Assembly: GCA_043823435.1 (NCBI GenBank)
Contig: JBDRAV010000002.1
Span: 1-59,754 of the forward strand
Source: Candidatus Omnitrophota bacterium
Lineage (GTDB): Bacteria; Omnitrophota; Gorgyraeia; Gygaellales; Profunditerraquicolaceae
Direction: 5' to 3'
Length of the DNA: 59,754 bases
Numbering within the stretch: position 1 is the first letter of the stretch; every line of letters starts with the position of its first letter. Positions 19,956 to 29,257 of this stretch are shown in pieces. A program made the translations under genes and the position numbers. Below the pieces are notes generated by a model that did not search any database, had not been told where the DNA came from, and saw only the letters and a program-made list of their open reading frames with translations.

Positions 19956-20438
19956 TTATATTTCTAGTATGGGATCTAAAAGGCCTGATCCCCTATTTAA
20001 CGTCCTGGATTTCCAACTACTCCATTCGTATCCAAGTGGCGATGAGGTCAAATCCGCTCTAACTGGATTATATTCGATGTAGTTTAGGCAATCTACAAGA
20101 TACTGATCTTTTTGGATAATCATATTCTTAAATCTTCCCTGCCAAAGGTGGCCAACCTTATTATATTTCTTATTGAACCAAATTGTATATGTCAGATCGA
20201 TACCTTGCATAAGCTTTCCTAGATCGTTTATTTTCTTAACTTCAATAATTAGATGGATGTGATTAGGCATCAGACAATAGGCGTATAGCTTGAAGTGGTA
20301 TTTTCTTTTATAATGGACCAGGATTTCCAGATATTTGTTAAAGTCCACATCTTCTAAAAAGATTTTTTGTTTTTGATTACCCCGTTGAATAATATGGTAA
20401 CACACATTTGGTATTATTAATCTAGGGCCCCTAGTCAT
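19956..20438 (-). mobile_element. REP-associated tyrosine transposase (RAYT, Y1 HUH family), apparently intact
   Basis: YHIIQRGN, YCLMPNHIHL (HUH), GHLWQGRF, YIEYNPVRA, YEWSSW; ATG 20438 with GGAGG RBS; flanked by REP-like palindromes. Confidence 0.9.
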
Positions 20439-20455: not shown

Positions 20456-20485
20456 TAATAGACGAAGCAAAAGGGAGTTTCTAAC
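20456..20485 (-). promoter_or_regulatory. Putative ECF-sigma promoter driving RAYT
   Basis: Minus strand GTTAGAAAC-N12-CGTCTATTA; same motif and spacing as at 21234 and 25334. Confidence 0.65.
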
Positions 20486-20502
20486 ATAAAATTTTATATT
20501 AA

Positions 20503-20561
20503 GGGGACACTTCTCGCTTTGACCGAAGAAGTGTCCCTTGATTGTCAGGAGAAGTGTCCCT
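20503..20561. repeat. REP-like palindromic cluster, right flank of RAYT
   Basis: GGGGACACTTCT at 20503; AGAAGTGTCCCT at 20527 and 20550. Confidence 0.85.
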
Positions 20562-20607
20562 AAAAAAGATTTATAATTAGGTTAGTTGGTGCTATAATAC
20601 GGCTATT

Positions 20608-21219
20608 ATGGATGACTTGGGGTTTGTCCATAGATGCGTTAAAGGGGACAAGCAGGCGTGGGATGAACTTGTAGAAAGATATTCTTCTTTAATATATAAT
20701 TACATCCATAGCGTATTGAAGATAAAAGGTCGTATCTTCTCGCAGGAAAATGTCAACGACCTCTTCCAAGAGATCTTCCTTTCTTTAGCCAAAGATAATT
20801 TTAAGAAATTGAGCACCTTTAGGGCCAGGAACGGTTGTAGCCTTGCAAGTTGGCTAAGGCAGGTTACTATAAATTTTACCATTGGTTATATCCGTAAAAT
20901 CAAGCCTGTGCTTTCATTGGATGAAGAGATAGGTGATGATTTTAGCATGGCAGATATACTTGCATCTGATTTGCCGTCCGCAGCTGATGATCTGGATCGG
21001 GAAGAAAAGATTATACACCTGAGGGGTTGTATCGATAGATTAAACACTGACGATAAATATTTTCTTGAGTTGTATCTTTATAAAGGGATTGGACTTGAGG
21101 AATTAAAAGTTTTCTTTAAGGTTTCGCGCGCAGCGGTTGATATGCGTAAGAGCAGGATTGTTGAGCGGTTAAGAGAGTGCTTCAAGGATAAAGGTTTTAT
21201 CTTGTCCGATAAGAAATAA
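20608..21219 (+). CDS. ECF (group 4) RNA polymerase sigma factor
   Basis: GDKQAWDELVERY, NDLFQEIFL, SLASWLRQV (region 2), AVDMRKSRIVERLR (region 4); TGcTATAAT extended -10 at 20590-20598. Confidence 0.9.
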   Translation: MDDLGFVHRCVKGDKQAWDELVERYSSLIYNYIHSVLKIKGRIFSQENVNDLFQEIFLSLAKDNFKKLSTFRARNGCSLASWLRQVTINFTIGYIRKIKPVLSLDEEIGDDFSMADILASDLPSAADDLDREEKIIHLRGCIDRLNTDDKYFLELYLYKGIGLEELKVFFKVSRAAVDMRKSRIVERLRECFKDKGFILSDKK

Positions 21220-21233
21220 ATCCGATTTATGGA

Positions 21234-21263
21234 GTTAGATTTCATACATTTTTACGTCTATTA
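21234..21263 (+). promoter_or_regulatory. Putative ECF-sigma promoter of the anti-sigma/CHAT operon
   Basis: GTTAGATTT-N12-CGTCTATTA; ATG begins 22 nt after the motif end. Confidence 0.7.
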
Positions 21264-21284
21264 TAACAGGAAGGAAATGTTGAT

Positions 21285-21989
21285 ATGCCTGATACATTAG
21301 AGCGGTTAATAAGGATAGTTTATAAAAAGTGGAAACAGGCTCATCGATTAACGCAGGAGTCGCATCCAGATGAAGAAGCATGGGTTTGTTTTTTTGATGG
21401 TAGGCTGTCGGCGCAAGAAGATGAGCGCATAAAGGAGCATTTAATAAGTTGCGAATTTTGTTCAGAGATTGTTGCTGCTGTAGCCAGATCGGAGCCGGTT
21501 CCCGTAAAAACTTTGCCTAAAGATTTAGCAGAGCGCGCGAAGGATTTAGTGGTATCGCAGGAGAGATTTTCTGTCGCAGAAATAATCATTCTACTTAAAG
21601 AAAAGATGCTGGAGATATTGTCTATTACCGGGGATGTGCTGGTCGGGGAGGAATTTGTGCCTGCACCGGTATTGCGTAGCCGCAAGATAAAAGAATTTAA
21701 AGACGAGATCACTATTTTAAAAGATTTCAAAGATATAAGAGTCGAGGTAAAAATACAAAATAAGCTTGGCCAATCCTTTGATCTGTTTGTCTTTGTGAAA
21801 GATAAACAGAGCCACCGTATAATTAAAGACTTAAGAATTACTCTTCTTAAGGGGGACTTAGAACTCGAATCCTATCTTACCGCTTCCGATAAGGTAATCT
21901 TTGAGCATGTGCTGGCAGGAAAATATACCGTTGAGATATCAAATGCCGATAATAAAATTGCCTCGGTATTGCTTGATATCAGAAAATAG
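21285..21989 (+). CDS. Zinc-finger (ZAS) anti-sigma factor, apparently soluble, with a C-terminal beta-rich domain
   Basis: HPDEE...GRLSAQEDERIKEHLISCEFC (HxxxCxxC); no clean TM helix. Confidence 0.8.
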   Translation: MPDTLERLIRIVYKKWKQAHRLTQESHPDEEAWVCFFDGRLSAQEDERIKEHLISCEFCSEIVAAVARSEPVPVKTLPKDLAERAKDLVVSQERFSVAEIIILLKEKMLEILSITGDVLVGEEFVPAPVLRSRKIKEFKDEITILKDFKDIRVEVKIQNKLGQSFDLFVFVKDKQSHRIIKDLRITLLKGDLELESYLTASDKVIFEHVLAGKYTVEISNADNKIASVLLDIRK

Positions 21990-21995
21990 TAGCGC

Positions 21996-24197
21996 ATGGA
22001 AGAGCGTAATGCCCTGATTTTAGAGATTCTAAGGCATGACACCACGTTTAGAATGAGCATTTCTGAACGGAATGATCTTGTCCAGACCGTAAAACACTAT
22101 AGTCAACTCAGCGTATCATTTGCGGAAATAAATAAGTTATGCCGGGAAACAATAGAGATACTTAATAGGGCAAGCAAGAAATCCGCTTTAACCCTCGACC
22201 ATATAAATAATCTTAAAAAAACAGGCCAGATACTCTGGGATCATCTGTTTACCAGGTCGGTAAAAGACAGGTTGACTACGACCATAATTAAAGAGCTGGT
22301 TCTTTCCATAGATGAGGAGTTAATTAATATCCCCTGGGAACTCTTGTATAATGGCAATGAGTTCATGTGTCTTAAATTCAATTTGGGGCGGTTGGTCAGG
22401 ACTAAAGAACAGGTTGCCCCAAGGCAATACCGCAGCTTAAAGGCTACCCTTAAGATGTTGATATTGGCTAACCCGAATAATGACCTAAGATCAGCTTACC
22501 TTGAAGGTGTGTATATAAAGAATCAGTTTGACCGTAGAAGGAACGAGATCGGCATCGATTTCAAATCTACCCATATTGATACGCTGTATGTAAAAAAGAA
22601 TCTGCGGGATTATGATATCGTGCATTTTGCCGGTCACTGCGAATATGATAGTAATAATCCGAAGAATACGGGATGGGTTTTAAGCGATGGAAGATTTACT
22701 ACGGCGGATATTCTGGCTTTAGGCGAAAGCCTTTCTTTCCCGGCCTTGATATTTTCTAACGCATGCCACTCCGCCAAGGCCGTAACCGAAATAGAAGATT
22801 TGGATTACCACGAGAAGAATTATAGCCTTGCATCAGCATTTTTGTTTTCAGGAGTAAGGCATTATATCGGCACTATATGGAAGGTAGAAGACCCGGTGAG
22901 CTTAGCCTTTGCCAGGGAATTCTATACGCATTTGATTAAAGGCAATTCCGTGGGCGAATGCATGCGTCTTTCGCGCCTGAAATTAATTAAAGAATATGGC
23001 ATCGGCACTATATCGTGGGCGAGTTACATCCTTTACGGAAACCCGGATTTTGCATTGTTCAGGCCTAAGCCTCACCCAGCGCCATTAAAATTTAAAAAGG
23101 GTGTTTCTTTATACAAAAAACAGATAGTAAGAGTCCTTTTGGCGGCTTTTGCCTTCTCTATAATTTTGTTTTTTTATACATGGCTGCCTACCAGGAATCC
23201 TACTACCTTGTTTTCTTTTATCAAGTCCAAGAAACTATTCCTAAAGGGGAATAATCAGGAAGTTATACTGATTTGTAGCCGAATCATAGAAAGGGAACCG
23301 TCGTTTCTGGCGGCCTATCCGTTAATAGCGGATACGCATGAAAGGATAGGCGATAGAGATAAGGCGTTAAAATATTATTTTGATTACGCCTTCGCCAGCG
23401 AAAAGAAGCACGATAAAAAACACCTGTCTTCTGCTTATATCGGGATTGCGTGGTCTTATCATCAGCAAGGAGAATATCCTAAGGCCTTAGATTTCTACAA
23501 CAAGGCAGCCGCATTAAGCAGGGAAGCCCGCGACAAGCTGAACGAAGCGGTTGCTCTCAGGAAATTGGCGGTCTGGCATATGGACAAAGAAGATTATGAT
23601 AAGGCGCTAGAATTACTCACAAAAAGTTCCGAGATCAACCGTGAAAGAGGGCGGCAGTATGAACATAAATACAATCTGGCCTGCGATTATTTTGATATGG
23701 GCCTAGTTTTTTCCAATAAGGACGATTTTACTACAGCCAAGGAGTTCTATAATAAGAGCCGCATCATTTTTGAGAAATTAAACCTAAAGAACGAATTAAG
23801 CGATTGCTATTTTAACCTTGGTGAGATATGCATTTTTCAGAAAGAATATCAGAAGGCCATGGATTATTATATGCAGGGGTTGAAGATAGATGAATCGCAG
23901 GACGATAAGCCGAGCCTGGCAAGTGATTATAATATGATAGGAGAATTATATCTGGAGATAAATGATCTCCAGCAGGCCGAGAAATTCTTTAACCACTCGG
24001 TTATTATTTCCAAACAGATAAATGCCCGTCCGGAATTAGCATCGGCGTGCTATAATCTAGGGATTCTGTATAAAAATAATGGCAGAAAGAGCAAAGCGCG
24101 GGATTATCTCAGGCAAGCTCAGGAGATATACCGTATGATGGATACTTCGGATTACCTGGAAATCAGAGAAGAGCTTATAAGCCTTGATAACCAATAG
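21996..24197 (+). CDS. CHAT (caspase-like) protease with a TM helix and TPR repeats
   Basis: IPWELL, IVHFAGH (His), IFSNAC (Cys), YIGTIWKV, WASYILYGNP; TM IVRVLLAAFAFSIILFFYTWL; about 8 TPR-like repeats. Confidence 0.88.
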   Translation: MEERNALILEILRHDTTFRMSISERNDLVQTVKHYSQLSVSFAEINKLCRETIEILNRASKKSALTLDHINNLKKTGQILWDHLFTRSVKDRLTTTIIKELVLSIDEELINIPWELLYNGNEFMCLKFNLGRLVRTKEQVAPRQYRSLKATLKMLILANPNNDLRSAYLEGVYIKNQFDRRRNEIGIDFKSTHIDTLYVKKNLRDYDIVHFAGHCEYDSNNPKNTGWVLSDGRFTTADILALGESLSFPALIFSNACHSAKAVTEIEDLDYHEKNYSLASAFLFSGVRHYIGTIWKVEDPVSLAFAREFYTHLIKGNSVGECMRLSRLKLIKEYGIGTISWASYILYGNPDFALFRPKPHPAPLKFKKGVSLYKKQIVRVLLAAFAFSIILFFYTWLPTRNPTTLFSFIKSKKLFLKGNNQEVILICSRIIEREPSFLAAYPLIADTHERIGDRDKALKYYFDYAFASEKKHDKKHLSSAYIGIAWSYHQQGEYPKALDFYNKAAALSREARDKLNEAVALRKLAVWHMDKEDYDKALELLTKSSEINRERGRQYEHKYNLACDYFDMGLVFSNKDDFTTAKEFYNKSRIIFEKLNLKNELSDCYFNLGEICIFQKEYQKAMDYYMQGLKIDESQDDKPSLASDYNMIGELYLEINDLQQAEKFFNHSVIISKQINARPELASACYNLGILYKNNGRKSKARDYLRQAQEIYRMMDTSDYLEIREELISLDNQ

Positions 24198-24206
24198 GAG
24201 ACCTTT

Positions 24207-24770
24207 ATGAGAATATTGTCGGTTCTGGCAATAATATTATTCTTACTAAATGTTGCAGGTTGTTCTATGCCGATAGCATCTACCCGAGGGTCTTTATACG
24301 GTTTTACCAGGGTAGAGAAGAGGTCCAAAGGTATGTTTAAAGGCAGCAAAACCGTAACTATCCAAGATTTCCGTCAGAACGAGGCATACGATGAAGACAT
24401 AACAGACCTTAAGCAAAGGGTGGATGAATATATTTTACGTCATCCGGAATTAAGCGAATCAGTTAAGAAAGATTTACGGGAAATAAAAGTAACTCATGGG
24501 GCAACCAGCGATGAGGCTATTCTATTATTAGGTAAGCCTGATAAGGTGATGAGGGCATCGGGAGAAGGCCGGTACGGTGCCACGGAGATATGGATTTACA
24601 GGATAAGCAAGTTACGGTTCTTCACTGTATTTATTTTTCCAGTATTTCCTGTCCATGAAGGGCATTACTTGTATTTTAAAGACGGCGTGCTGGTAGAAAT
24701 AGAGCATCGTTCTCTTGAGCAGACTGTCAAGCAGGGGCAGGGGGCGGGGCTTACCGAATCCAAATCTTAG
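24207..24770 (+). CDS. Lipoprotein with a BamE/SmpA-like motif
   Basis: Lipobox VAGC; GATSDEAILLLGKPDKV...EIWIY. Confidence 0.65.
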   Translation: MRILSVLAIILFLLNVAGCSMPIASTRGSLYGFTRVEKRSKGMFKGSKTVTIQDFRQNEAYDEDITDLKQRVDEYILRHPELSESVKKDLREIKVTHGATSDEAILLLGKPDKVMRASGEGRYGATEIWIYRISKLRFFTVFIFPVFPVHEGHYLYFKDGVLVEIEHRSLEQTVKQGQGAGLTESKS

Positions 24771-24863
24771 GAGGGAATCCGATATTTTTATTGAAAAAAA
24801 TAATAAAATATGTAGAATCTTAACTAACGCCACGCAGATGGTATTATAGGGCTGGAAAGATAT

Positions 24864-25280
24864 ATGAAAAGAGCCGTAATTATTTACTTACTCTTGTTTA
24901 TGGGGATATCGGCGGGATACGTTTATGCCCAGAAATCCCAAGAATATAACGCTTCCGGGGGTACCCTTGAAGTAGAGGCAGGAAATATTTTTGTAATCGA
25001 GCTTAAATCTAATCAGGTTATAGGTTTAAAATGGCGGCTCGCCAGTCCGCTTGATACAGACATACTTAAGCTTGTAAGCGTAGAGTTCGTAAGGAGTACA
25101 GCTAGAATAATAGGCATTCCGGGTAAAGAAACATGGACCTTTAAAGCCCTTAAGCCGGGTGAGGTAACGATTTATTTAAAGTATAGCCGTTCCCCGTCGA
25201 CAAAAGTCGCCTCGGAAGAAGAGAAGGTCTACATAGTTACCGTTACAGAACCTTCCAAGCAGAAGAAACAGTCTGAATAA
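24864..25280 (+). CDS. Secreted chagasin/I42-family protease-inhibitor-like protein
   Basis: Signal peptide; FVIELKSN..GLKW, GIPGKETWTFKALKPGEVTIYLKYSR; own sigma70-like promoter TTGAAA-16-TAGAAT at 24791-24818. Confidence 0.75.
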   Translation: MKRAVIIYLLLFMGISAGYVYAQKSQEYNASGGTLEVEAGNIFVIELKSNQVIGLKWRLASPLDTDILKLVSVEFVRSTARIIGIPGKETWTFKALKPGEVTIYLKYSRSPSTKVASEEEKVYIVTVTEPSKQKKQSE

Positions 25281-25333
25281 TACGATTCCGCCCGCACCCT
25301 ATCCGCAATAAATCATTTTGGTTAAAAATTCCT

Positions 25334-25363
25334 GTTAGATTTTCTCGACCTCTTCGTCTATTA
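25334..25363 (+). promoter_or_regulatory. Putative ECF-sigma promoter of the beta-propeller gene
   Basis: GTTAGATTT-N12-CGTCTATTA; ATG begins 22 nt after the motif end. Confidence 0.7.
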
Positions 25364-25384
25364 ATTCAGAAGGGGGGGCTTGAG

Positions 25385-26950
25385 ATGAAAAAACATACGG
25401 TATTTGCGGTAATTGCAGGTTTATTTCTCTTTGGCGCAGGGGTTGAATCTTTGGCAGGAGAATTATCTTGGCAGGATATAAGCAGGGAGGTCTTAGATTT
25501 AAAGACGGTTTTGGTGAATCCCGATAATCCGGATAATATTTATATAGGAGCGCATAACGGGATTTTTAAGACAAGCAATGGGGGCGCAGGTTGGAGAAAT
25601 ATCCTTTCCCTAAAGGGCCGGAACCACCAGATAAATTTTTTATCCTTCAACCTTGGCTATAGAAATTCTCTATACGCAGCCACAGGAAACGGACTTTTTT
25701 ATAGTTTTGACGATGGAGAAACCTGGAAGAAGATTTTTAGAGGCAAAAACTATCTTGAGAGTGAATGTACCTGTGTTGTAGCTTTATCAAACCTTATCTA
25801 TCTCGGCACAAAAGGAGGGCTCTTTATAAGCAAGGACAAAGGCCGCACCTGGCATAAGGATAAAGGCGTGCTGGGCAATAGCCCGATCTTGGCCATAGTC
25901 TATAATGCTAAAGATGCGGCATATATTTATGCCGCCTGTTTAAGCGGGGTATTTATAAGTGGAAACCTGGGGCAATCATGGGAGAGGATTTTCGCTGCCC
26001 TGGTTATAGGAGATGTTTCTGAGAAAAAAGAAGCGGCCGAGGAGCGCGATGATGATGAAGAGAGGTCTTTGGGGGTAAGGCATATTGCCTGCGACCCTCA
26101 TAATTTAAATTGTCTTTACTTAGCTACATCCAGAGGAGTTCATAAGAGCTGTGACAGGGGGCGGAGTTGGGAACAGTTTCCCGGTGACGGCCTGCTTAAC
26201 AAAGAAGTAAAATTCCTTCTTTTTTCTAATAATGGTGATTTTTATGCCGTTAGTAAATCAGGAATATTTGAGTATGCGGCTGGCCGTTGGCAGGAATTAT
26301 CGCTTGGCCTGACAGCGCAGGAGATTAGATCCTTGGCCTCAGATAATCAGAATAATTTATATGCCGCCTGCGATAAAGGTCTATTTAAAACAGTATATTC
26401 GGATTATAAGGAAAGAGGAGATCTAATGTCGTTATATTATATGGATATACCGGAGATCAACGAAGTCCAGCAAGCGGCAATTAAGTATGCGCAGGTAGAA
26501 CCGGATAAGATCATCCGATGGAGAAAGCGCGCGGCAAGAAAGGCAATATTGCCGCGGGTTAGCGTAGGTTTGGATAGGAGCGCGACAGACCTGTGGCATT
26601 GGGAGTCAGGGTCGACCACAAAATCAGAAGATGACATATTAAGGAAGGGGCGTGATGCTATAGAATGGGATATATCTTTAAGCTGGGATTTAAGTGAGCT
26701 TATCTGGAACGATGCCCAGACTTCCATTGATGTGCGTTCGAGGTTGATGGTGGAGCTTCGCGATGACATCCTGGATGAGGTAACAAAATTATATTTCGAA
26801 CGCATAAGGGTCAAGATGGAACTGGATAACATATCTATTGAAGATAGAAGAAAGAGATTTGAAAAGGAACTGAAACTAAAGGAACTGACAGCTTTTCTTG
26901 ATGGTCTTACCGGAGGATACTTTTCATCGCACCTGCCTAACCAGAAATAG
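25385..26950 (+). CDS. Secreted BNR/Asp-box beta-propeller protein with a TolC/OEP-like C-terminal segment
   Basis: Signal peptide; repeated S.D.G.TW boxes; QQAAIKYA...ILPRVSVGLD...WDISLSWDL...VTKLYFER. Confidence 0.7.
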   Translation: MKKHTVFAVIAGLFLFGAGVESLAGELSWQDISREVLDLKTVLVNPDNPDNIYIGAHNGIFKTSNGGAGWRNILSLKGRNHQINFLSFNLGYRNSLYAATGNGLFYSFDDGETWKKIFRGKNYLESECTCVVALSNLIYLGTKGGLFISKDKGRTWHKDKGVLGNSPILAIVYNAKDAAYIYAACLSGVFISGNLGQSWERIFAALVIGDVSEKKEAAEERDDDEERSLGVRHIACDPHNLNCLYLATSRGVHKSCDRGRSWEQFPGDGLLNKEVKFLLFSNNGDFYAVSKSGIFEYAAGRWQELSLGLTAQEIRSLASDNQNNLYAACDKGLFKTVYSDYKERGDLMSLYYMDIPEINEVQQAAIKYAQVEPDKIIRWRKRAARKAILPRVSVGLDRSATDLWHWESGSTTKSEDDILRKGRDAIEWDISLSWDLSELIWNDAQTSIDVRSRLMVELRDDILDEVTKLYFERIRVKMELDNISIEDRRKRFEKELKLKELTAFLDGLTGGYFSSHLPNQK

Positions 26951-27007
26951 GGACACCCTTTGCTTTGGTTGCAAAGACGTCCCCCGATTGGGTTTAAAGA
27001 CGTCCCT
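26949..27007. repeat. REP-like cluster, variant subfamily (GGGACAC / AAAGACGTCCC)
   Basis: AGGGACAC at 26949; AAAGACGTCCC at 26973 and 26996. Confidence 0.75.
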
Positions 27008-27017
27008 CTAAATATGC

Positions 27018-27046
27018 TTGAATTTACTCATTTAAAAGTCTATAAT
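27018..27046 (+). promoter_or_regulatory. sigma70 promoter of the moxR operon
   Basis: TTGAAT-17nt-TATAAT. Confidence 0.75.
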
Positions 27047-27086
27047 GTATCAAACAATCCGGTTAATTAAGAAAGGAGCGAAAGGT

Positions 27087-28013
27087 ATGTATAGCGAGAA
27101 CTTAAGAAAGATAATTGAAAATGTTGAGAAGGTCATTGTCGGAAAGACCGAAACGGTTAAGCTTTTGCTTGTCGGGCTTCTCACTAAAGGCCATATTCTA
27201 ATCGAGGATGTCCCCGGACTCGGGAAGACAACTCTTGCTCTTGCTCTGGCAAAATCCATTAGCGCGGATTTTAAAAGGATCCAGTTCACTCCTGACCTCC
27301 TTCCTTCTGACGTATCGGGAGGGTTTGTTTATAACCCCAAAAGCGGAGAATTCGATTTTAAGAAGGGCCCAGTTTTTACAAACATACTTTTAGCCGATGA
27401 AATTAACAGGACTACCCCGCGTACGCAGTCTGCGCTTCTTGAATGTATGCAGGAATATACCGTGTCTTTGGACGGTAAAACATTCGCCCTTCCGAACCCT
27501 TTTATAGTAATCGCTACCCAGAATCCCATAGAATATCAGGGCACATATCCTTTGCCTGAGGCTCAGATAGATAGGTTCGCGATGAAGATAAGTATGGGTT
27601 ATTTGCGTGTTGAGGAAGAAGTGAAGGTCATATCAGGGCAAAAGATGCAGCATCCTATTGAGAGCCTTCAACCGGCTCTGAAACTGGAGGATATCCTTGA
27701 GCTGCAGGAAGAGGTTAAAAAAATACAGGTTTCCCCTAATGTTATGGATTATATTGTAAAGCTCGTTTCCGGCACACGCACGAGAGATGACGTTAAGTTA
27801 GGTGCAAGCCCCAGGGCTTCTATCGCACTGATGAAAGTCAGCTCTGCGTGGGCGCTCCTTGAAGGCAGAGATTATGTTGTCCCCGAAGACGTAGTCACCC
27901 TTTCGCCCTGGGTATTAAAACACAGGATTGTATTGCAGCCCAAGGCCATGATCGCGGGCAAGAATTCTGAACTTGTAATCTCTGACTTATTAAAAAGCAC
28001 GCCTATCCCTTAA
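27087..28013 (+). CDS. moxR: MoxR-family AAA+ ATPase
   Basis: GHILIEDVPGLGKT, RIQFTPDLLPSD, LADEINR, IATQNP, GTYPLPEAQIDRF, GASPRAS; start at ATG 27087 after AAGGAG. Confidence 0.93.
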   Translation: MYSENLRKIIENVEKVIVGKTETVKLLLVGLLTKGHILIEDVPGLGKTTLALALAKSISADFKRIQFTPDLLPSDVSGGFVYNPKSGEFDFKKGPVFTNILLADEINRTTPRTQSALLECMQEYTVSLDGKTFALPNPFIVIATQNPIEYQGTYPLPEAQIDRFAMKISMGYLRVEEEVKVISGQKMQHPIESLQPALKLEDILELQEEVKKIQVSPNVMDYIVKLVSGTRTRDDVKLGASPRASIALMKVSSAWALLEGRDYVVPEDVVTLSPWVLKHRIVLQPKAMIAGKNSELVISDLLKSTPIP

Positions 28014-28021
28014 AAACGAAT

Positions 28022-29257
28022 ATGCTTAAGGTATACTTCAAGAGATGGCTCTTCCTTTTCCTCATTATTATAGCTAACCTGCTTATAGCGCTTCAGACAT
28101 CCATAGAGTTCTTCGCTTTATTTTTCTGGTTTTTGATATCTCTCGTATTCGTGAGCTTGATATGGATTGCCATAGGATACCTCGGAATAAATTTATCTCT
28201 GGCAAGAAGGACCACGACCAAGTTAGAAGAGGATGATACCGTAGAAATAGAAACAATAGTAAGCAATAAGAGCCTCCTGCCGATATTTAATTTTGTCCTG
28301 GAAGATCATCTTACGTGCGCGGCTCCCGGGGAAAGAGAGAGAAGATTTATATTAGAATATATCGGCCCCCGCTCAACAGCCAGCTTAAAATACCGCTGCC
28401 AGTGCCCATTAAGAGGCAGATACGAAATAGGCCCGATCCATATTTATATTTTTGACCCCTGGGGCCTGTTTTTCCTTAAAAAGACATTTTTCTTATATTC
28501 AGAACTTTATGTTTATCCGCGCACATTTAACATCTCCAAGTTTCCTCCCTTGACAAAGGGGACCGCTCCCTGGTTTGGCATAGAGACCGGCCGTGTCAGC
28601 GGCGATGATCACGAATTTTACGGTATCAGGGAGTATAAGCCGGGGGACCCGATAAAGAGGATCCATTGGTTATCCAGTGCCCGAAAGAATAAGTTAATCG
28701 TCAAACAATTTCAACACCAGGTTTTCTTCAGGGCAACGATCATATTCAATTTAAATAAAGAAAGGAACTACGGCGAAGGAAAGGAGAGCGTAGCGGAATA
28801 CATCATAAAGATAGCCGCCTCCGTGGCCAAATATTTTATTGAACGGAATGTCTCCGTAGAGGTTATAGCGCATATAGGAGAGACGGTATATATACCTTTT
28901 AATAAGGGCCCCGAGCATTTAGAAGATGTTCTTAAGCTTCTTACCATAGCTAAAGCGGAAAGCATGGTCAGCCTGAACGAACTCTTTCAGGAATTTTCAT
29001 CCTATATCCCGAACGATTCCAGTTTGATTGTGATAATGCCGGACGAGGATTGGGAGTTTTTGTCTGCAATGATGTCCCTGAAGGTGAGGAATGTCTCGCT
29101 GCTCCCTCTAATATTGAATTCTTCTTCGTTTCTGCGTTCTCCCGATAAACAAGGCATTATAGAATCCCCCGCATTCAAATCTTCGCAGGCATTTGACTCC
29201 GCTCCTATCTTTTTTGCCCGCGGCGATAATTTAGAGCATAATTTTCTCAAATATTAG
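28022..29257 (+). CDS. DUF58 (vWA-like) protein with N-terminal TM helices
   Basis: EFYGIREYKPGDPIKRIHWLSSARKNKLIVKQF. Confidence 0.9.
   Translation: MLKVYFKRWLFLFLIIIANLLIALQTSIEFFALFFWFLISLVFVSLIWIAIGYLGINLSLARRTTTKLEEDDTVEIETIVSNKSLLPIFNFVLEDHLTCAAPGERERRFILEYIGPRSTASLKYRCQCPLRGRYEIGPIHIYIFDPWGLFFLKKTFFLYSELYVYPRTFNISKFPPLTKGTAPWFGIETGRVSGDDHEFYGIREYKPGDPIKRIHWLSSARKNKLIVKQFQHQVFFRATIIFNLNKERNYGEGKESVAEYIIKIAASVAKYFIERNVSVEVIAHIGETVYIPFNKGPEHLEDVLKLLTIAKAESMVSLNELFQEFSSYIPNDSSLIVIMPDEDWEFLSAMMSLKVRNVSLLPLILNSSSFLRSPDKQGIIESPAFKSSQAFDSAPIFFARGDNLEHNFLKY

Follow-up and report, generated by a model that had tools for sequence, protein, structure and literature searches.

The promoters of extracytoplasmic function (ECF) sigma factors can be predicted from conserved motifs (PMC7826278). 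In Myxococcus xanthus, the promoters of the ECF sigma factor DdvS carry the sequence GTAA-N16-CGT (PMC6061681), and DdvS, together with DdvA, an anti-sigma protein of the order zinc-binding anti-sigma domain (ZAS), transmembrane segment, TPR and CHAT, stands over a CBASS/CRISPR defence island (PMC11506125). In type III-E systems, the TPR-CHAT protein Csx29 is found with Csx30 and the sigma factor RpoE (PMC10028731). Alternative sigma factors also govern competence regulons: ComX/SigX, through the 'cin-box', in streptococci, and SigH in staphylococci and lactobacilli (PMC7665891, PMC3486894, PMC3364868). Here, we analysed a stretch of 59,754 nucleotides from Candidatus Omnitrophota bacterium (contig JBDRAV010000002.1 of assembly GCA_043823435.1; hereafter, the window), in which an ECF sigma gene adjoins copies of a two-box motif, GTTAGA-N15-CGTCTATTA. 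Comparison with related genomes indicates that the neighbouring sigma factor very probably uses this motif as its promoter. On the same comparative grounds, we consider probable the full account favoured below, which combines an ECF promoter, a feedback circuit, a regulon of DNA-uptake, recombination and mobile-element genes, and promoter spacers that act as insulators. To our knowledge, almost nothing is known about regulation in Omnitrophota, which are uncultured and have small genomes.

The motif and the neighbouring ECF sigma gene

The window holds exactly three copies of the motif, at 20485-20456 (minus strand), 21234-21263 and 25334-25363 (both plus strand). In agreement with a first-pass annotation of the window, which had noticed no others, there is no further copy: all three match without mismatch, and a tolerance of up to two mismatches adds none. 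Dinucleotide shuffles gave 0.11 copies expected by chance, and three copies were reached in none of 100 shuffles. The ATG codons of the anti-sigma gene (21285) and of the beta-propeller gene (25385) each lie 22 nt past the motif end, also in agreement with that annotation. The gene of the REP-associated tyrosine transposase (RAYT; REP, repetitive extragenic palindrome) has its ATG at 20438, 18 nt past the motif end, and its alternative start in the open reading frame (ORF) listing, GTG 20447, falls within the Shine-Dalgarno (SD) sequence. The features concerned are as follows:

20480-20485, minus strand: -35-like box GTTAGA of the RAYT promoter, exact match
20456-20464, minus strand: -10-like box CGTCTATTA of the RAYT promoter, followed by the SD sequence GGAGGTG and ATG 20438
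20590-20598, plus strand: extended -10 sigma-70-type promoter TGCTATAAT, 9 nt before the sigma ATG at 20608, with no SD sequence
20608-21219, plus strand: ECF (group 4) sigma factor of 203 amino acids (TIGR02937 sigma70-ECF, 66.4 bits versus a cut-off of 42.9)
21234-21239, plus strand: -35-like box GTTAGA of the anti-sigma/CHAT operon, exact match, conserved after the sigma gene
21255-21263, plus strand: -10-like box CGTCTATTA of the anti-sigma/CHAT operon, with ATG at 21285
25334-25339, plus strand: -35-like box GTTAGA of the beta-propeller/MoxR operon, exact match
25355-25363, plus strand: -10-like box CGTCTATTA of the beta-propeller/MoxR operon, with ATG at 25385

The source assembly comprises 786 kb and is 58% complete. 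A position-weight scan of it returned six sites at 23-42 bits and none between 14 and 22 bits, while the reversed and complemented control matrices stayed below 20 bits. All six sites are oriented toward a gene. Neither a spacing of N15 plus or minus 1 nor weaker matrix matches added sites in this genome. Three of the six lie outside the window: C15:21439, 25 nt upstream of comM; C3:143623, upstream of spoVG; and C4:5108, approximately 90 nt upstream of recA, where a hairpin, a T-run and a perfect TTGACA-N17-TATAAT come after the motif. The idea of a local regulon of three transcription units was therefore too narrow, and relatives typically carry 5-17 sites.

Sigma orthologues were found in 55 of 61 relatives. 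At the orthologous loci (47-74% protein identity), which number in the dozens, the motif is kept immediately behind the sigma gene, in many cases sharing bases with its 3' end, and approximately 20-25 nt ahead of the anti-sigma ATG; the spacers are unrelated from locus to locus. The exact pattern occurs in 46 of the 61 relatives, typically in 5-17 copies, compared with 0-2 for the reversed control. When box distances of 9-21 were permitted in 12 relatives, the spacing was exactly 15 in 136 of 139 matches. At most sites, the ATG follows CGTCTA by approximately 20-26 nt. The conserved positions are limited to a short A-tract, GTTAGAttt, CGTCTATTa and the SD sequence, and the site alignment contains no conserved sigma-70 promoter upstream of the motif, including at divergent and intergenic sites. 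The -10 box CGTCTATTA is nearly invariant and contains CGTC; a CGTC -10 box combined with a 15-bp spacer is of the ECF type.

The motif is present in 39 of 43 genomes with a sigma orthologue versus 6 of 17 without one (Fisher p=3e-5). Five near-complete genomes (G002, G005, G021, G030 and G027), which carry 8-17 sites each, have no ECF sigma factor besides the orthologue, and RpoD and a sigma factor of approximately 275 amino acids also occur in genomes that do not have the motif. A strict 18-base version of the motif, scanned against 185,579 species genomes, matched at least 119 stretches; among the 80 loci listed, 78 belonged to Omnitrophota. Because strict geometry with fixed orientation and ATG distance, conserved footprint, abundance, co-occurrence, the range of candidate sigma factors and taxonomic distribution all point the same way, assignment of the motif to this sigma factor, as first suggested from the window sequence, is very likely.

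Two classes of site can be told apart by the three bases that follow GTTAGA: AAA/AAT is usual before RAYT, spoVG and comM, and TTT before most other targets. These classes may tune promoter strength or timing.

The sigma protein scores 27.9 bits on Pfam Sigma70_r2, above the cut-off, and 18.1 bits on Sigma70_r4, below it; it reached no equivalog model in the NCBIfam-type family search. The sigma-70-like TGcTATAAT noted earlier before the sigma gene belongs to a conserved TGnTATAAT: a TATAAT-like box stands 6-9 nt before the sigma ATG in 31 of 40 distinct orthologous loci and TGn in 25 of the 40, while an SD-like sequence precedes the gene in none. Because of this combination, the sigma mRNA is predicted to be a conserved leaderless transcript of the sigma-70 type. 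No terminator was found between the sigma and anti-sigma genes; read-through should therefore supply basal anti-sigma. As the first-pass annotation proposed, the sigma factor may be made constitutively and its targets may be inducible.

The remaining genes around the three sites are the following:

21285-25280, plus strand: four-gene anti-sigma/CHAT operon (Pfam)
21285-21989, plus strand: ZAS-type anti-sigma with H-x3-C-x2-C (zf-HC2 weak, 17.6 bits, below the cut-off)
21996-24197, plus strand: CHAT-TPR protease (Pfam CHAT, 6.8e-33)
24207-24770, plus strand: 187-amino-acid protein without an assigned family
24864-25280, plus strand: chagasin-family inhibitor (Pfam Inhibitor_I42, 1.3e-19)
25385-29257, plus strand: beta-propeller/MoxR operon (Pfam), after which more genes follow
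25385-26950, plus strand: BNR/sortilin-like beta-propeller (Pfam)
27045-28013, plus strand: MoxR AAA+ ATPase (Pfam)
28022-29257, plus strand: DUF58 protein (Pfam)
19956-20438, minus strand: RAYT gene (Pfam Y1_Tnp, 3.7e-17; NCBIfam NF047646 REP_Tyr_transpos, 80 bits, exactly at the cut-off of 80)
20503-20561, no strand assigned: REP-type hairpin repeats GGGGACACTTCT...AGAAGTGTCCC and a third arm, between the RAYT and sigma genes, read from the sequence

Hairpins of the form GGGACAC...GTGTCCC occupy the same place in relatives (L006-L013, L031 and L032), between divergent RAYT and sigma genes; the RAYT-REP-sigma arrangement is therefore itself syntenic across genera.

In the circuit that we propose, GTTAGA(ttt)-N12-CGTCTATTA and the short A-tract preceding it would serve as the -35/-10 promoter for RNA polymerase carrying the ECF sigma factor encoded at 20608-21219. 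The sigma gene would be transcribed from its extended -10 promoter as a leaderless mRNA that runs on into the anti-sigma gene, yielding a basal sigma/anti-sigma pair. Inactivation of the anti-sigma, presumably by the CHAT-TPR protease of the same operon, would free the sigma factor, and all motif copies would fire. As the ECF promoter drives the anti-sigma/CHAT operon, the circuit would have negative feedback without positive autoregulation. The predicted targets in the source genome are the anti-sigma/CHAT operon, the beta-propeller/MoxR operon, the divergent RAYT gene, recA, comM and spoVG, to which relatives would add comEA-comEC, radC, dprA, the anti-repressor-like ORF6N gene, toxin-antitoxin genes and other mobile-element genes.

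Spacer pairing and alternative readings of the motif

Many sites have a C/T-rich 15-nt spacer that complements the downstream SD region, which places the -10 box in a hairpin loop. This feature is absent from the first-pass annotation, which had noted that the spacers differ. They do differ, being unrelated between orthologous sigma loci, but they are not free, since they are anti-SD at many sites. The example in the window is:

25343-25385, plus strand: predicted hairpin whose 5' arm is the promoter spacer (25343-25355) and whose 3' arm (approximately 25372-25385) extends over the SD sequence to the ATG, with the -10 box in the loop

The 25334 site has a minimum free energy of -17.4 kcal/mol (z=-2.06). 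Since column-wise covariation was weak, we used partner-permutation and context tests. Spacers paired with their own SD partners at -9.6 kcal/mol, compared with -8.2 for permuted partners (0 of 300 permutations as low) and -6.6 for random genomic 15-mers. When the sites were classed by context, using crude stop-to-stop ORF calls, the pairing followed the orientation of the upstream gene (z compares own with permuted partner pairing):

Co-directional upstream ORF, ending at a median of 35 nt before the motif: 55 sites, -13.0 kcal/mol, 76% at -9 or lower, z -8.1, spacer C 29%
Divergent upstream ORF: 40 sites, -7.0 kcal/mol, 22% at -9 or lower, z -0.5, spacer C 17%
Anti-sigma sites: 36 sites, -5.7 kcal/mol, 6% at -9 or lower, z +0.7, spacer C 9%

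The duplex energies of co-directional and divergent sites differ with p=1e-8. The difference was also seen within families, with co-directional versus divergent values (kcal/mol) of -13.8/-5.4 for RAYT, -13.9/-7.3 for ORF6N, -12.7/-5.8 for ComEA and -18.2/-9.3 for RecA. SD strength is equal in the two classes (p=0.37); the difference resides in the spacer. Despite the expected read-through from the sigma gene, the anti-sigma sites have no pairing. The window sites fit this context rule: pairing is strong at the propeller site, which has the co-directional chagasin gene upstream, weak at the divergent RAYT site (-6.9 kcal/mol) and lacking at the anti-sigma site.

Insulation of the target gene from read-through transcripts is the likely function of the anti-SD spacer and the simplest reading of its context dependence. 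Transcription would start approximately 6-8 nt past CGTCTA, giving a leader of approximately 15 nt that holds little beyond the SD sequence. The 3' arm, at approximately +7 to +22 past CGTCTA, corresponds to this whole predicted leader. Where the upstream gene is co-directional, the spacer would have evolved complementarity to the leader. A read-through transcript would hold both arms and form a hairpin that hides the ribosome-binding site or terminates transcription, and a transcript started at the motif would not have the 5' arm and would be translated. Three points weigh against this interpretation. Column-wise covariation of the hairpin is weak in the SpoVG and propeller alignments, consisting mostly of C-G to U-G changes in a shifting register; orthologous sites are not independent, which inflates the p-values; and the context classes rest on crude ORF calls.

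The alternative that survives best accepts the promoter and treats the hairpins as terminators or 3'-end stabilisers of the upstream genes, arising from tight packing. The hairpins do occur where the upstream gene ends at a median of 35 nt before the motif, and the recA sites, at which a U-run follows the stem, are terminator-like. Nevertheless, a U-tract follows only 8 of 42 strong co-directional hairpins, and the 3' arm coincides with the SD-to-ATG leader. Additionally, the anti-sigma site, the sole case that needs read-through translation, has no hairpin despite its co-directional upstream gene. We regard this alternative as unlikely, although it keeps a real share of plausibility, and it overlaps with the insulator reading in that both would insulate the target from upstream transcription.

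The attribution of the motif to the neighbouring sigma factor also has points against it. The -35 box GTTAGA has no AAC, which is common to many ECF promoters but not universal; we treat the box as a lineage-specific variant. The motif precedes the anti-sigma gene and not the sigma gene, so that the usual signature of autoregulation is absent. Four genomes have the orthologue without the exact pattern, at least one of which (G022) carries a C-to-T variant of the -10 box, TGTCTATTA. Finally, one genome that is 94% complete (G040; L179-L185 and L322) keeps eight sites, preceding spoVG, recA, comEA, comM and other genes, and has no detectable sigma orthologue; the region upstream of its propeller-like site holds no sigma locus. 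A weak sigma-like match between two of its motif sites proved to be an XRE-type helix-turn-helix protein and not a diverged sigma factor.

The eight orphan sites and the lack of AAC would suit a promoter read by another alternative sigma factor, either the one of approximately 275-281 amino acids on contig C16 or one missing from the 58%-complete assembly, which would then regulate the ECF system. Against it, the approximately 275-amino-acid sigma factor and RpoD are present in the motif-free genomes G037 and G038, the motif goes together with the ECF orthologue across genomes (p=3e-5), no ECF-type sigma factor other than the orthologue occurs in the five near-complete genomes, and the CGTC -10 box with its 15-bp spacer is of the ECF type. 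We consider this possibility very improbable.

Just as improbable is the view that the boxes are not a promoter and that they form either an RNA element, in which a 5' GUUAGA and a hairpin with CGUCUAUUA in its loop regulate translation, or the operator of a DNA-binding protein. Many sites do fold so that the loop contains the -10 box and the stem the SD sequence, and approximately 16% of stem pairs are G-U, as fits an RNA. However, the boxes are equally conserved where there is no hairpin (36 anti-sigma and 40 divergent sites, z about 0), and their spacing is fixed at 15 whatever the geometry of the stem. Divergent and intergenic sites have no conserved upstream promoter that could make such an RNA. 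The two boxes differ from each other, forming neither a dyad nor a direct repeat, and an operator model does not predict that pairing should depend on the orientation of the upstream gene. A comparison of top- and bottom-strand folding, tried as a test of RNA against DNA cruciform, was not discriminating: the pairing-free anti-sigma sites show the same bias.

That the copies are remnants of a mobile repeat (a miniature inverted-repeat transposable element or a RAYT-spread promoter cassette) and not independently selected sites is barely credible. In its favour, REP-like repeats abound in the genome, the motif accompanies every RAYT gene, and among the targets are several mobile-element genes. 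Against it, only the boxes, A-tract and SD sequence are conserved while flanks and spacers differ, recA, spoVG, comM and comEA carry the motif across genera and families, and the motif lies outside the REP hairpin sequence.

Target genes of the predicted promoter

To survey the regulon, we collected all motif sites of 14 genomes, clustered the downstream proteins and then carried out family searches. The number of genomes with the motif, by target, was:

Beta-propeller operon: 14/14
RAYT: 12/14, with 20 copies
Anti-sigma operon: 12/14
SpoVG: 11/14
RecA: 11/14
ComEA-like: 10/14
ComM: 9/14
ORF6N: 8/14 (PHROG 'anti-repressor' phrog_4792 at 2e-30)
RadC: 5/14
Gp49/RelE-like: 4/14
Single cases: DprA, Cas3, DNA methyltransferases, an integrase, BrnT and AbrB

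The same target families dominate among 122 further sites from other Omnitrophota. In six genomes, comEC lies just downstream of the ComEA site. In the source genome, dprA lies approximately 660 nt downstream of spoVG (C3:141560-143623, minus strand) and has no motif of its own; in another genome (G010), dprA carries the motif directly. LexA is present in 5 of 12 genomes only, and the window's genus lacks it altogether.

These targets point to a family-wide regulon for DNA uptake, recombination and mobile elements, of which the conserved core lies, as it happens, beside the sigma gene. The late-competence genes common to known competence regulons are comEA-comEC, comM, dprA, radC and recA, and the predicted target set resembles those regulons. 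A more specific reading can be offered only tentatively, with more doubt than confidence. In this reading, the ECF sigma factor, bound by the ZAS anti-sigma and set free through the CHAT protease, would be the master switch of a competence and recombination programme (comEA-comEC, comM, recA, radC and dprA) in an Omnitrophota family, and it would also drive RAYT genes. The switch would be tapped as an induction signal by prophage and mobile-element genes, such as those for anti-repressors and for a small conserved protein of viral contigs (described below), in lineages that often have no LexA. Its promoters would carry the anti-SD insulator throughout the regulon, as a guard against read-through where genes are tightly packed.

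Several individual loci deserve mention. At the recA loci (C4:5108-5200; L070, L075, L087 and others), the ECF motif and a perfect sigma-70 TTGACA-N17-TATAAT stand in tandem; between them come first an SD-like GGAAGGAGG, which pairs with the spacer, and then a T-run. The recA ATG lies approximately 90 nt after the motif. Elsewhere in the source genome, on contig C12 (approximately 21400-23214, minus strand, outside the window), comEC begins mid-protein right after a large serine recombinase gene, and the contig ends there; this gene for the DNA-uptake channel appears to be interrupted by an integrated element.

The motif also stands before tRNA-Val directly after the 23S-5S rRNA genes in three genomes (L057/G001, L071/G002 and L101/G021; approximately position 1500, minus strand). 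The anticodon is GAC, or AAC in G002. In G002, there is complementarity between the spacer and the 5' portion of the tRNA region that follows it, and the 23S gene contains a group I intron (L071 2360-2721, 57.7 bits). A new RNA, considered for three ORF-less sites, was rejected, as Rfam placed tRNA-Val downstream.

On eighteen viral contigs from IMG/VR (L323-L340; also L084, L128 and L141), the full motif, complete with A-tract and anti-SD spacer, stands 19-21 nt ahead of a conserved ORF of 44-55 amino acids (...KKLIEETKRIIRWRLFLDECGL...), for which PHROGs returned no match. In host genomes, the ORF likewise follows the motif, beside an integrase gene. Phages or prophages seem to have adopted the host ECF promoter.

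If the proposed circuit holds, it would provide for Omnitrophota a complete and testable set of sigma factor, anti-sigma, promoter and regulon (approximately 10-17 promoters). It would tie signalling by a caspase-like (CHAT) module to the uptake and recombination of DNA, to REP/RAYT activity and to mobile-element genes, and it suggests a possible stand-in for the SOS response where LexA is missing. The anti-SD spacer would illustrate how a compact genome keeps a tightly-off regulon silent despite read-through from its neighbours, and a -10 box in the loop with the spacer as silencer arm would be a principle reusable in synthetic ECF switches. Portability is common among ECF sigma/promoter pairs, and the present pair might therefore be usable as an orthogonal switch in E. 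coli.

Relation to previously described systems

The predicted promoter shares with ECF (group 4) promoters the bipartite -35/-10 structure, the CGT-containing -10 box, the rigid spacer, the A/T-rich upstream tract, the location beside sigma and anti-sigma genes and the small regulon. It departs from promoters such as those of DdvS in its GTTAGA -35 box without AAC and in lying between the sigma and anti-sigma genes, not before the sigma gene. Unlike the usual ECF circuits, this one would place the sigma gene on a leaderless sigma-70 promoter and have negative feedback without positive autoregulation. CHAT, Omnitrophica and competence go unmentioned in the main text of the ECF reclassification paper; we therefore assign no ECF group to this sigma factor.

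As in DdvS/DdvA and type III-E, an ECF sigma factor and a zinc-binding anti-sigma domain are genetically linked to a TPR-CHAT caspase-like protease, and the regulon of relatives includes defence and mobile-element genes (Cas3, methyltransferases and toxins). Nevertheless, the ZAS anti-sigma (21285-21989) and the CHAT-TPR protease (21996-24197) are separate ORFs, which places the locus outside the DdvS/DdvA type. Additionally, a chagasin-type inhibitor and a propeller/MoxR operon are attached, and the predicted core is DNA uptake and recombination, not CBASS/CRISPR. On the type III-E sigma model, the sigma factor scores 24.9 bits against a cut-off of 100 and thus falls outside that family.

In competence regulons, among which Sxy/CRP-S is that of the Pasteurellaceae, one dedicated promoter type precedes comEA-comEC, comM, dprA, radC and recA, as is predicted here. 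The differences are that the Omnitrophota system has a classical ECF sigma factor with a ZAS anti-sigma, belongs to a different phylum and counts spoVG, RAYT genes and the propeller/MoxR operon among its members.

The anti-SD spacer has its closest counterpart in IS10/Tn10 and IS50, whose transposase genes, according to Davis, Simons and Kleckner (1985), are reportedly protected from outside transcription by pairing with the ribosome-binding site that silences read-through transcripts only. In both cases, sequence upstream of the transcription start (a predicted one here) pairs with the ribosome-binding site, and silencing is, or would be, limited to read-through transcripts. What sets the present case apart is that the 5' arm is the promoter's own spacer, that the arrangement recurs across a sigma regulon of cellular genes and that it follows the orientation of the upstream gene.

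Prophage anti-repressors such as Tum of coliphage 186 and those of the Gifsy prophages are controlled by LexA. The ORF6N and viral-contig genes resemble them in carrying what would be the promoter of a host stress regulon, but this would be an ECF promoter and not a LexA box, in lineages where LexA is patchy (5 of 12 genomes) and, in the window's genus, absent. The promoter itself is of the ECF type; what appears to be new in this system is the content of its regulon, its feedback-only architecture and its context-dependent anti-SD spacers.

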